Source: a virus. Taken from it: DNA of 64,000 bases. Shown one piece after another: positions 28,812 through 33,912 of this stretch. The stretch covers positions 57,250 to 121,249 of the IMG/VR virus record IMGVR_UViG_3300020205_002210. One strand, 5' to 3'. The position numbers were made by a program, and so were the translations under genes. The notes beneath the pieces were generated by a model, which was given only the letters and a program-made list of their open reading frames with translations, ran no database searches and had not been told where the DNA came from. Position 1 is the stretch's first letter. Each line of letters starts with the position of its first letter.

Positions 28812-28889
28812 GGGCCTCTAGCTCATGTTGGTTAGAGCAGTGGACTCATAATCCATTGGTGCCGTGTTCGACTCACGGGGGGCCCACCA
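28812..28889 (+). tRNA. tRNA-Ile2 (CAT, lysidine type) most likely
   Basis: Cloverleaf GGGCCTC/GGGGCCC-A-CCA, loop CTCATAA, resembles E. coli ileX. Confidence 0.8.
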
Positions 28890-28908
28890 TCTTTATAATA
28901 GGAATATA

Positions 28909-29349
28909 ATGAAAACTAAATTCTTGGAGGCATACATGAAGGTTGCCGAAAGTTTTTCTGGACTTTCATCAGCCAAAAGACTACAAGTCGGCGCAATTGT
29001 TGTCAAAGAAGACCGTATCATCTCTATTGGTTACAATGGAATGCCTTCAGGTTGGGACAATGAATGTGAAGAATTGGTCCATCGGATTGCCGAAGAACCA
29101 ATATTGAAAACTAAACCAGAAGTTCTCCATGCGGAAACAAATGCTATTGCAAAACTGGCAAAAAGTTCGGAGTCTGGTAATAATGCTAGCATTTTTATAA
29201 CACATGCTCCATGTCTCGACTGTGCAAAATTAATTTACCAGTCTGGCATCAATTCGGTATATTACCGAAATGCATATAGAAATGAAGATGGTGTTAAATT
29301 CTTGCATAAAGCCGGCATAAGAGTAGCAAAGATTGAAACCGCTAAATAG
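28909..29349 (+). CDS. cd: dCMP deaminase
   Basis: VGAIVVK, GYNG, HAETNA, PCLDC zinc motifs. Confidence 0.92.
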   Translation: MKTKFLEAYMKVAESFSGLSSAKRLQVGAIVVKEDRIISIGYNGMPSGWDNECEELVHRIAEEPILKTKPEVLHAETNAIAKLAKSSESGNNASIFITHAPCLDCAKLIYQSGINSVYYRNAYRNEDGVKFLHKAGIRVAKIETAK

Positions 29350-30330: not shown

Positions 30331-30393
30331 TATAAAAACACACTGCCGAGCGGTCAAATTGCGTAAGCAGATGAGTAGTGTGTTTCTATATGG
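30328..30393 (+). ncRNA. Inter-tRNA long-stem element A
   Basis: CCATATA-A-AAACACACT pairs with AGTGTGTTT-C-TATATGG. Confidence 0.5.
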
Positions 30394-30483
30394 AAGATGA
30401 TGCAGCGGGGTTGGTCCTGCGACTGGCCTTGAAAACCAGGTTCTCTTAATCGGGATGGGGTTCGACTCCTCCGTCTTCCACCA
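30392..30483 (+). tRNA. tRNA-Ser(TGA)
   Basis: GGAAGAT/GTCTTCC, loop CTTGAAA, long variable arm, enlarged D-loop, A73. Confidence 0.85.
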
Positions 30484-30486
30484 AGT

Positions 30487-30558
30487 TTCTCGGTCAGTAC
30501 AGTGGGATGTGCAGGTAGACAATACACGGACAAGGTTCGAATCCAAACTGAGAATTCA
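30487..30558 (+). pseudogene. Degenerate tRNA-like element
   Basis: TTCTCGGT/ACTGAGAA closing stem, D-like arm, GGTTCGAATCC T-loop; no valid anticodon arm or CCA. Confidence 0.4.
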
Positions 30559-30576
30559 ATATTGTTGGGAGTTAAC

Positions 30577-30753
30577 ATGCAAGAAAATTTAATTTATCGT
30601 TTAAGAAAGCGTGCTGAAATTCGCAGACAGATTCCTACAAGAAAATCGGTGCAAGAAAATACACCGGATAGAATTGCAGATTTACTAGAAGAAGCTGCGA
30701 ATAGGATTGAAGAATTGGAGAGTGGGCAGGATGGTAATGCAGCTGATTGCTAA
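30577..30753 (+). CDS. Small hypothetical protein whose 3' end overlaps tRNA-Ser(GCT)
   Basis: GGGAG RBS; MQENLIYRLRKRAEIRRQIPTRKSVQENTPDRIADLLEEAANRIEELE. Confidence 0.65.
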   Translation: MQENLIYRLRKRAEIRRQIPTRKSVQENTPDRIADLLEEAANRIEELESGQDGNAADC

Positions 30754-31205: not shown

Positions 31206-31280
31206 TAGATAAACACATTGGGATTAAATTCTGGTCACCCCAGCGCATAAGAGGTTGCGTACAGTGTGTTTTTCTATGGT
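31202..31280 (+). ncRNA. Inter-tRNA long-stem element B
   Basis: ACCATAGA-T-AAACACATTG pairs with CAGTGTGTTT-T-TCTATGGT; two inner hairpins. Confidence 0.5.
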
Positions 31281-31330
31281 GAAACTATTCAGGTTCAATG
31301 GTCACACGCCCTTGCTTGAAATAGAAGTTG

Positions 31331-31441
31331 CCATATTAAAGTATATTTCAGGTTGGGTTAGATTCGCGGTCTAACTATTTGGGATAAAAAGTCGGCGTAA
31401 TTGCAGGATAATAATCTAAGATACGGAATATACTTTAATAT
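31331..31441 (+). ncRNA. Inter-tRNA long-stem element C
   Basis: Perfect 15 bp ATATTAAAGTATATT/AATATACTTTAATAT after a GCCA; inner GTTAGA/TCTAAC hairpin. Confidence 0.45.
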
Positions 31442-31447
31442 GTAAAC

Positions 31448-31778: not shown

Positions 31779-31869
31779 GGATGTAATAGTTGGTACGAGT
31801 GGGCATAAATTGCTTGTCCATGACATGTTTCGAGCATGAAGGTTGGTTCGATTCCAACAGCATCCACCA
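31779..31869 (+). ncRNA. tRNA-like RNA with aberrant D and anticodon arms
   Basis: GGATGT/GCATCC-A-CCA, GTTGG-TTCGATT-CCAAC, CATG/CATG variable arm, 9-nt loop TAAATTGCT. Confidence 0.55.
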
Positions 31870-31877
31870 AGTTTTAT

Positions 31878-31956
31878 TCCGCAGAACCCGAGCAAGGTGC
31901 ATGGGCGTGACTGTTAATCACTGGTTAGTAGAGTTCGATTCTCTAATGCGGAGCCA
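31878..31956 (+). tRNA. tRNA-Asn(GTT)
   Basis: Loop CTGTTAA, G73-CCA. Confidence 0.88.
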
Positions 31957-31963
31957 AGTTTTT

Positions 31964-32037
31964 CTCTGATTGGTGAAATGGTATCATCCGTGCTTTGGGA
32001 GCATGTGGCGCAAGTTCGATTCTTGCATCGGAGACCA
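31964..32037 (+). tRNA. tRNA-Pro(TGG)
   Basis: CTCTGAT/ATCGGAG-A-CCA, loop TTTGGGA. Confidence 0.9.
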
Positions 32038-32049
32038 AAAAATGTAAAT

Positions 32050-32134
32050 GCTCTGATGGTGGAATAGGTAGACACAAGAGACTTAAAATCTCTCGCCTTC
32101 GGGTGTGCCGGTTCGATTCCGGCTCGGAGCACCA
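32050..32134 (+). tRNA. tRNA-Leu(TAA)
   Basis: Loop CTTAAAA, variable arm, A73-CCA. Confidence 0.93.
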
Positions 32135-32139
32135 AGTTA

Positions 32140-32214
32140 AGTTCTATGACGTAGACGGATGCGTACCGGCTTCATAAGCCGAGGAGATTGGATCGTTACC
32201 AATTAGAACTACCA
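32140..32214 (+). tRNA. tRNA-Met(CAT) elongator-like, ATCGTTA T-loop
   Basis: AGTTCTA/TAGAACT-A-CCA, loop TTCATAA. Confidence 0.8.
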
Positions 32215-32220
32215 GATTAT

Positions 32221-32295
32221 GGGTCTTTAGTAAAATGAATATTACACTGGGCTACGAACCCGGAAGTGGGAGTTTGATTCTCTCAAGACCCTCCA
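32221..32295 (+). tRNA. tRNA-Arg(ACG)
   Basis: GGGTCTT/AAGACCC-T-CCA, loop CTACGAA. Confidence 0.88.
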
Positions 32296-32497
32296 AGACG
32301 TTCCGCTTTGTTAGCGGATACTGTGACCCGCAGGATGAGAAGTGAGGTGACTCTCACGGGTGGTAGTCTTTAAACCGAAAGGCCGCTAGCAATGCGATAA
32401 CGGTCCCTGTCGGGAAGCGGGTGGAAGGTGTGTGAGATTTGCGGAGAAATCCAAGAGATGATGCACTATAATTACCGCCGAGGGATGCAGAGCATAT
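32296..32497 (+). ncRNA. Unclassified ~200 nt GC-rich multi-helix, pseudoknotted RNA
   Basis: At least seven helices; ACCCGC/GCGGGT crosses GGTGGTAGT/ATTACCGCC; no convincing ORF. Confidence 0.7.
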
Positions 32498-32571
32498 ACC
32501 CATATAGCTCAAAGGTAGAGCACTGGCTTGATAAGCCATAGACGAAGGATCGTTACCTTCTGTGGGTACCA
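32498..32571 (+). tRNA. tRNA-Ile(GAT), ATCGTTA T-loop
   Basis: ACCCATA/TGTGGGT-A-CCA, loop TTGATAA. Confidence 0.88.
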
Positions 32572-32579
32572 GATTTTAT

Positions 32580-32656
32580 TACGGTGTAGTTCCAATTGGC
32601 AGAACGATGGTCTCCAAAATCATATGTTGTGGGTTCGAATCCCTCCGCCGTAGCCA
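32580..32656 (+). tRNA. tRNA-Trp(CCA)
   Basis: Loop CTCCAAA, G73-CCA. Confidence 0.92.
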
Positions 32657-32677
32657 GTTTTTAAAAAGGTGAATAAT

Positions 32678-33169
32678 ATGAAAAAGTTCGATGTAAATGA
32701 AGTTAAGTCCTTCCTTGCAAAACAAGGACCAAACACCAAAGTCTACCTTGGTGCCGATTCTGAACGCATCAGAATAAACGGAGTTTGGTATGCAGACTAT
32801 GCTCTTGCAGTCGTTGTTCATATTAATGGCCAAAATGGTTGTAAAATTTTTGGATATGTTCAACGTGAATTGGACTATGACCATAAAAAAAGTAAACCTG
32901 CAATGCGATTGATGACAGAAGTATATAAAGTTTCAGAGTTGTTCCAAGAAATGCAGGATGTTCTGGAAGATTTTCATGTTGAAGTTCATTTAGACTTGAA
33001 CAAGGATGATGTACACGGAAGTTCTTGTGTGGTACAACAAGCAATTGGTTATATCAAAGGTACATGTAACATGACACCAATGGTTAAACCAGATGCGCCT
33101 GCAGCAAGTTTCTGTGCTGATAGATTGAAAAGAATCTTAGCTGAACAAGAAACTTCAATTGTTCAGTAA
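32678..33169 (+). CDS. RNase H-like protein (DUF458/YkuK type)
   Basis: VYLGADS, RLMTEVYK, VEVHLDLN acidic motifs. Confidence 0.75.
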   Translation: MKKFDVNEVKSFLAKQGPNTKVYLGADSERIRINGVWYADYALAVVVHINGQNGCKIFGYVQRELDYDHKKSKPAMRLMTEVYKVSELFQEMQDVLEDFHVEVHLDLNKDDVHGSSCVVQQAIGYIKGTCNMTPMVKPDAPAASFCADRLKRILAEQETSIVQ

Positions 33170-33708: not shown

Positions 33709-33743
33709 AGTTGTAATGTGATAGTTATTTAAAGAAAGTAAAT

Positions 33744-33911
33744 ATGAAACCGACAAAAACATTTAATCTCAGCAAACGCACCAAAACAATGATGACATTG
33801 ATGCCGTTCAAAGATCAAGAAACTCGTAATGCTTTTAAACGTATGATGATTGATGCTCAGCTTTGCAGTGAGATTGTTCCAAAGAATTCAAAAGAAAAGA
33901 ATTCTGATTAA
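33744..33911 (+). CDS. Small basic hypothetical protein (55 aa)
   Basis: MKPTKTFNLSKRTKTMMTLMPFKDQETRNAFKRMMIDAQL... fills the spacer between two tRNAs. Confidence 0.55.
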   Translation: MKPTKTFNLSKRTKTMMTLMPFKDQETRNAFKRMMIDAQLCSEIVPKNSKEKNSD

Positions 33912-33912
33912 T

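Follow-up and report, generated by a model that had tools for sequence, protein, structure and literature searches.

A predicted structured RNA of about 200 nucleotides in the tRNA arrays of uncultivated freshwater phages

Whether the nucleotides between two tRNA genes of an uncultivated phage are a spacer, the remains of former tRNA genes or an RNA gene in their own right is the question raised by this locus. The DNA analyzed (the window) makes up the right-hand 64 kb of an IMG/VR viral contig that is 121 kb long. Its open reading frames include UvsW-like, gp46-like and family B polymerase proteins, and the polymerase shares about 50% identity with its counterparts in T4-like cyanophages, which indicates that the phage is a distant T4-type myovirus. 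All sequencing runs with DNA of this phage are lake or other freshwater metagenomes. ARAGORN located 26 tRNA genes between 28.8 and 35.4 kb of the window, all on the + strand. A preliminary description of the locus had proposed that an unclassified structured non-coding RNA fits exactly between tRNA-Arg and tRNA-Ile, and the ARAGORN predictions agree with the fit, since the element occupies the whole gap. Position n of the element is window position 32295 + n, and its bounds are as follows.

32221..32295, + strand: tRNA-Arg(ACG) with encoded CCA at its end, the upstream bound of the element (ARAGORN; Rfam tRNA model, 56.8 bits)
32296..32497, + strand: the whole RNA gene, 202 nt (covariance model R1, 225.7 bits)
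32498..32571, + strand: tRNA-Ile(GAU), the downstream bound of the element (ARAGORN; Rfam tRNA model, 63 bits)

A search with R1 found 32296-32497 to be the sole copy in the window. The description of the element as GC-rich also holds, its GC fraction being 0.52 compared with 0.32-0.40 in nearby coding DNA; that of the tRNAs themselves is 0.45-0.50. The predicted fold of the 202 nt has an energy of −66.8 kcal/mol on the + strand (z = −2.14; 5 of 200 shuffled sequences did as well), and the − strand gives z = −1.28. Single-sequence folding provides only a modest gain over shuffles, and it is the comparative evidence that is decisive.

We compared the element with known RNA families and with sequenced genomes. 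None of the 4227 models of Rfam 15 matched at 32296-32497, at the gathering score or at E<=10, and no model matched the element at E<=10 in 10-12 other loci of the family. The models without a match at E<=10 include those of RNase P, hammerhead, twister, HDV, hatchet, pistol, glmS and group I. A pairing of the RNase P P4 type, for which we took the signature to be a long-range P4 helix formed by CR-I and CR-V, was absent among the covarying helices when CR-I and CR-V were compared by eye. By our own comparison an HDV-like fold was rejected, the strand order being A5'-B5'-A3'-B3' with no equivalent of P4/J4-2. A group I intron was rejected as well, because a single nucleotide separates the two 3' strands at 32479-32481 and leaves no P8, and RF00028 gave no match. 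Neither ARAGORN nor RF00005 detected a tRNA within 32296-32497, and the covarying helices do not form a cloverleaf.

A blastn search of GenBank phages with three variants of the family gave no match, and a strict two-gap pattern had 0 matches in 185,000 prokaryote genomes. The 19-mer GTCGGGRAGCGGGTGGARG has at least 120 matches in prokaryote genomes, all of them chance occurrences in unrelated GC-rich coding DNA; at these sites nhmmer aligned only the 19-mer, and Rfam found nothing. About 16 nt of the element (GGGAAG.CGGGUG..AA) resemble what we take to be the B12 element words of the cobalamin riboswitch J3/4-P4, GGGAA...GGUG..AA. However, no Cobalamin, AdoCbl or AdoCbl-variant model matched at E<=10 in 11 family members, and the element, unlike that riboswitch, has neither a B12 box nor a downstream gene to regulate, so we judged the resemblance to be due to chance. 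The segment AUUACCGC is complementary, by eye, to the 530 loop of 16S rRNA, and this candidate was dropped because an 8-mer match is expected by chance. No description of the element's RNA family was found in the literature searched. Judged by these comparisons, the predicted RNA family is previously uncatalogued.

Homologues were gathered from loci around a neighboring RNaseH-like open reading frame, where the element was present in 34 of 80, and by two motif scans of IMG/VR, which gave more than 100 further homologues among the matches listed. The resulting collection holds at least 105 distinct full-length homologues from more than 140 IMG/VR contigs. The covariance model scores of 100 homologues range from 144 to 237 bits and the lengths of 100 members from 175 to 281 nt. 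The carriers include both T4-like genomes (about 175 kb) and jumbo ones (260-365 kb), and each of the five complete genomes tested (three T4-like, two jumbo) has exactly one copy. A jumbo carrier of 331 kb (G009) and a T4-like carrier of 177 kb (G006) have 64 open reading frames in common, some of them 60-75% identical, and jumbo and T4-like carriers appear, by sequence, to draw on one gene pool.

At least 15 different pairs of tRNAs flank the element, and the neighbors vary between phages. Among 120 distinct contexts, a tRNA ends no more than 5 nt upstream in 79 and a tRNA starts no more than 15 nt downstream in 64; the median number of tRNAs within 3 kb is 13, and in 116 of the 120 all of these lie on the strand of the element. 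The upstream flank ends in CCA in 69 of 97 distinct contexts (71%). Some copies have no adjacent tRNA; copies that lack a preceding tRNA have other signals upstream, and at locus L133 a perfect sigma-70 promoter (TTGACA-17-TATAAT, 12 of 12 positions) on the strand of the element ends 18 nt upstream of it. Two relatives that are 100% complete lack the element, and there tRNA-Arg directly abuts tRNA-Ile, which indicates that the element is an accessory, dispensable cassette. We conclude that the element is an independent unit, a real non-coding RNA gene and not a spacer. As far as the sequences sampled allow, the predicted RNA family is confined to uncultivated freshwater phages, in which it is found nearly always among tRNA genes.

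Other features of these arrays deserve description. The window's array is headed by an open reading frame of cytidine/dCMP-deaminase fold (TadA-like, 28864-29349), and it encodes tRNA-Arg(ACG), the usual TadA substrate. Two tRNA-like genes with a CCA end, at 31779-31873 and 31877-31957, were missed by ARAGORN and by the Rfam tRNA model; the anticodon loop of the latter gene is CUGUUAA (GUU, Asn), and tRNA-Asn is otherwise absent from the window. Three further gaps, at 30331-30716, 31206-31447 and 33709-33912, have 61, 6 and 8 nhmmer matches, respectively, in related phage arrays. In jumbo relatives a further conserved non-coding module, about 170-240 nt long, lies directly 3' of the element (L083:1431-1670, and likewise in L110, L087, L139, L089 and L121); it is closed by UUUUUAUAGUC...GACUAUAAAAA, contains a covarying inner hairpin and has no Rfam match. 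Phage tRNA arrays thus seem, from sequence comparison, to hold several non-tRNA modules.

To describe the structure we used covariation tests that drew on 85-100 homologues. In a model-based alignment of 100 sequences, 97.7% of the cells in the paired columns are standard pairs. Both partners change in 33 of 43 pairs, whereas sliding the partners by 1-3 columns leaves 6-15 such pairs. The observed covariation values were reached by 0 of 500 shuffles, and an independent MAFFT alignment gave the same picture. Many of the G-U pairs would be A-C on the opposite strand, which argues that the + strand is the RNA. Covariation lends strong support to a predicted structure with seven helices, a pseudoknot of 4 bp and a kissing contact between two hairpins; its parts are listed below in order along the element, with the tertiary contacts last.

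32302..32318, + strand: hairpin H1, UCCGC (32302-06)/GCGGA (32314-18) with a 7-nt loop, element 7-11/19-23; 5 of 5 pairs change on both sides, 99.6% paired
32321..32333, + strand: hairpin H2, CUGU(G) (32321-25)/(C)GCAG (32329-33), element 26-29/35-38; 3 of 4 pairs change on both sides, 99.8% paired
32342..32357, + strand: hairpin H3, GUGAG (32342-46)/CUCAC (32353-57), element 47-51/58-62; 3 pairs change on both sides
32366..32383, + strand: hairpin H4, GUCUU (32366-70)/AAGGC (32379-83) with an 8-nt loop, element 71-75/84-88; 4 of 5 pairs change on both sides
32384..32396, + strand: H5, a 3-bp stem CGC/GCG with a conserved 7-nt loop URGCARY, element 89-91/99-101; position 91:99 is CG in 73 and UA in 27
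32402..32488, + strand: long-range helix B, G + GUCCCU (32402-08)/AGGGAU..C (32481-86, 32488), element 107:193 and 108-113/186-191; 7 of 7 pairs change on both sides, 99.9% paired
32409..32426, + strand: G-rich joiner GUCGGGAAGCGGGUGGAA, nearly invariant (invariant columns of alignment A1)
32427..32467, + strand: hairpin H6 with a 6-bp base, element 132-137/167-172; 5 of 6 base pairs change on both sides
32468..32480, + strand: invariant strand AUAAUUACCGCCG, invariant in 105 sequences
32487..32494, + strand: conserved 3' tail GCAGAGCA, columns of A1 invariant or nearly so
32326..32361, + strand: pseudoknot PK1, H2 loop ACCC (32326-29)/GGGU (32358-61), element 31-34/63-66; 100% paired in 100 sequences
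32310..32351, + strand: kissing contact, H1 loop GUU (32310-12)/H3 loop GAC (32349-51), element 15-17/54-56; 87% paired overall

PK1, the kissing contact and a lone tertiary pair between the H5 loop base 32393 and 32400 (98:105; UA in 91, CG in 9) all lie outside the model used for aligning. Double changes in PK1 convert C33:G64 to A:U in 4 sequences and A31:U66 to G:C in 2. The first pair of the kissing contact is GC in 61, AU in 22 and GU in 10 sequences, and the contact has been re-invented with different sequences in a divergent clade. The H3 loop is GUGA-like in most homologues and UUCG-like in one clade, and the H4 loop carries an invariant ACC (32374-76). A perfect correlation links position 62 (32357, at the base of H3) and position 78 (32373, in the H4 loop), with C/A in 76 and A/U in 24, which suggests that the H4 loop docks at the base of H3. 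The tip of H6 varies in length and sequence, from about 12 to 150 nt in relatives.

These results bear unevenly on the pairings that had been proposed from the single sequence. The stems TCCGC/GCGGA, GTGAG/CTCAC and CGC/GCG were all confirmed by covariation across 85-100 homologues. In the pairing GGTGTGT/ATGCACT the base covaries, while its proposed companion GATTT/AAATC falls in the variable tip and is specific to the window's sequence. A proposed hairpin CC-GAAA-GG did not survive, since its two C never vary and the bases supposed to pair with them do; the stem actually supported here is GUCUU/AAGGC (32366-70/32379-83). Nor did TCCC/GGGA, because changes in its 5' arm are compensated at 32481-86 and not at the invariant GGGA. 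The RNA is pseudoknotted, as had been claimed, but through PK1: the pairing ACCCGC/GCGGGT named as the pseudoknot has two pairs that are unpaired in 33 and 12 sequences, and none of its pairs changes on both sides. From the claimed long-range helix GGTGGTAGT/ATTACCGCC there remains a 6-bp core, GGUGGU/ACCGCC, which can pair in all sequences, whereas the rest cannot; this core is invariant, hence beyond a covariation test, and it clashes with the covarying PK1. Overall, the claim of an unclassified structured non-coding RNA in a phage tRNA array is well founded, the Rfam search being without a match and the covariation strong. The contrary outcomes that the description had named, a match to an Rfam family or a lack of covariation and expression, were not observed, and RNA libraries contain the element.

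About 60 bases are invariant, and they lie in joiners and loops rather than in helices. The ACCGCC within 32468-32480 can pair with either of two copies of GGGUGG, at 32358-63 or at 32419-24; with the second, invariant copy (element 124-129) the pairing would be fully nested. No variant at G128, C181 or C183 turned up in scans of IMG/VR, and covariation therefore cannot decide between the two copies. Such absolute invariance beside freely covarying helices suggests that these bases are used in a sequence-specific manner, as a putative binding or active site.

No usable promoter or terminator was found inside the element or within 400 nt on either side of it (31900-32900), which implies that the element is read through together with the tRNAs. 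The sequence TATAAT at 32467-72 is nearly invariant, but an internal promoter there was rejected because it has no −35 partner, and the −35 region would fall in the variable H6. Release by tRNA processing is plausible in the window's phage, given that neither promoter nor terminator lies inside or beside the element and that 71% of its relatives start after CCA.

Six metatranscriptome runs contain part of a 1.6-kb test stretch, and the contigs of four were compared; element contigs are present in lake metatranscriptomes of three studies. In run X15 a contig that matches the variable H6 of the window's phage with one mismatch has a depth of 55 and core contigs have depths of 126-337, whereas a 267-nt contig of the adjoining open reading frame, also with one mismatch, has a depth of 4.8. 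The depths were 105-493 for the element versus 2.2 for the adjoining frame in X17 and 26 versus 3 in X16, all of these being crude contig depths to which relatives contribute in the core and DNA in the RNA libraries may contribute. Run X19 has tRNA-like pieces only. These depths apparently fit an abundant, stable RNA. Some RNA contigs span the junction of the element with the upstream tRNA. The bin 32464-32517 is almost empty of RNA contigs, and the element sequence of contigs gives way to Illumina adapter beyond 32459 and 32465 and upstream of 32315, in the same orientation in three of three cases. The adapter ends could reflect an RNA whose 3' end lies some 35 nt upstream of tRNA-Ile, or else a bias of library or assembly, and their uniform orientation would fit a + strand RNA in stranded libraries.

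In the search for a protein partner, we compared gene content by tblastn (E<1e-5) among three T4-like genomes with the element, two complete genomes without it and one jumbo genome with it (G009). No open reading frame is present in all three T4-like carriers and G009 and absent from the two non-carriers, at a threshold that a fast-evolving protein would escape. Among the T4-like genomes 31 open reading frames correlate with the element, and none of them is common to the jumbo genome. This result suggests that any partner of the RNA probably comes from the host or is a common phage protein. The protein most often near the element is the RNaseH-like one (PF04308), near it in 34 of 117 loci; it was rejected as a partner, since it is also found in genomes without the element. 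In the window this frame (32669-33169) is embedded in the tRNA array, and it is highly conserved, with 217 relatives in IMG/VR.

Taking the comparative evidence as a whole, we think that the element probably encodes a stand-alone, stable, trans-acting structured RNA that is excised from a tRNA precursor and binds a putative host component. The element would be transcribed within a polycistronic tRNA precursor, from which the host enzymes that mature the flanking tRNAs would excise it. RNase P acting at the 5' end of tRNA-Ile would make its 3' end, and an endonuclease followed by 3' trimming after the CCA of tRNA-Arg would free its 5' side. Covariation shows a 5' domain in which three hairpins are locked together by the H1-H3 loop-loop contact and by PK1, the pairing of the H2 loop with the strand after H3, and next to it two small hairpins with conserved loops; in the 3' domain helix B encloses the invariant G-rich joiner, the variable hairpin and the invariant AU-rich/ACCGCC strand. 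The roughly 60 invariant bases would form a putative binding or active site. As a guess, the RNA would bind a host component rather than a dedicated phage protein and might serve as a sponge or decoy, and the component might be a protein or small ligand of translation, tRNA metabolism or defense.

A bolder proposal, which we put forward tentatively, is that the family would be a new functional RNA class made in large amounts by freshwater phages. It would be either a candidate ribozyme with tRNA or other RNA as its substrate, or a candidate free-standing aptamer soaking up a small molecule of the host, for example an immune signaling nucleotide or a tRNA-modification precursor. The putative site would consist of the G-rich joiner and the AU-rich/ACCGCC strand.

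Our preference is for a candidate binder over an enzyme, and we regard as rather unlikely a ribozyme that would either cleave itself at or near a boundary, and in this way help to free the neighboring tRNAs, or act on RNA in trans. A compact pseudoknotted fold with about 60 invariant joiner bases characterizes catalytic cores no less than aptamers, 71% of the copies start directly after a tRNA CCA, and small ribozymes are known in phage tRNA regions. On the other hand, no ribozyme, group I or RNase P model matched at E<=10, and by our own comparison the order of strands is compatible with neither an HDV nor a group I topology. Copies that have a promoter of their own and lack an adjoining tRNA also argue against such a ribozyme, as do the tRNA-tRNA junctions of the same arrays that are processed without the element.

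Still less probable is a self-assembling particle made of RNA only, a small analogue of the ROOL and GOLLD nanocages, in which the pairing of the H1 and H3 loops would take place between molecules. The element occupies the niche of ROOL and GOLLD, which lie near phage tRNA islands and for which no protein partner is known (PMC12286853), the six-genome comparison found no correlated phage protein, and the covarying loop-loop contact could be intermolecular. However, covariation is blind to the difference between an intra- and an intermolecular contact of H1 and H3, and 200 nt is a third to a quarter of the ROOL/GOLLD size, with no similarity of sequence or model.

The location inside tRNA arrays and the nearly invariant TATAAT (32467-72) would be expected of a cis-acting spacer that aids the folding or processing of the neighboring tRNAs, or of an internal promoter, respectively, but we hold this to be very unlikely. 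The neighboring tRNAs vary by phage and are missing beside some copies, close relatives join the same two tRNAs directly, and 60 invariant bases with tertiary covariation far exceed the needs of a spacer; the element's own contigs are deep in RNA libraries, and a promoter at TATAAT fails for the reasons given above. A decayed pair of tRNA genes or a chance GC-rich stretch, suggested by a length of about 2.5 tRNAs inside a tRNA array and a fold z of only −2.14, has almost no probability left, being refuted by conservation (144-237 bits across two phage lineages) and by covarying helices that form no cloverleaf, and showing no tRNA signal.

Stable non-tRNA RNAs of phage tRNA clusters have been known since species 1 and 2 of T4. 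These RNAs, rnaC (species 1, 139 nt) and rnaD (species 2, 119 nt), lie on the tRNA strand of the T4 tRNA cluster, immediately downstream of tRNA-Arg, and the annotation lists them as small stable RNAs; they are freed, presumably, by the tRNA-processing machinery, and we know of no function for them. The present element is likewise a non-tRNA RNA gene on the tRNA strand of a T4-type tRNA cluster, placed after tRNA-Arg. The likeness ends there: a cmsearch with R1 over positions 68000-75000 of T4 (L201) gave no match at E<=1, no similarity is seen by eye, sizes and folds differ, and rnaC ends in a tRNA-like T arm, which the element lacks.

The candidate structured RNAs cataloged from IMG/VR by Fremin, Bhatt and Kyrpides (2023, PMC10690425) share with the element their source and type of evidence, namely covariation in uncultivated viral contigs; compared by description, they are motifs of 29-151 nt. 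Closer in niche are ROOL and GOLLD, phage and prophage RNAs that often lie near tRNA islands and have no known protein partner or function (PMC12286853). They share with the element a complex pseudoknotted fold, but they measure 580 to more than 800 nt. ROOL/GOLLD models (RF01998 / RF03087-type) did not match the element or its homologues, the 100 members measured all fall short of 500 nt, and by these comparisons the element is unrelated to either. ROOL and GOLLD have shown that phage tRNA islands hide remarkable RNA architectures. At about 200 nt, the present family is small enough for chemical probing, crystallography, cryo-EM and mutagenesis, and it has a well-defined covariation model, one copy per genome, two phage lineages and an apparent abundance in lake metatranscriptomes. 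The family further demonstrates that "gaps" within phage tRNA arrays are gene space, and several more gaps in the window are conserved as well. It is thus a tractable entry to what such RNAs do for phages and a credible candidate for a new class of ribozyme or aptamer.
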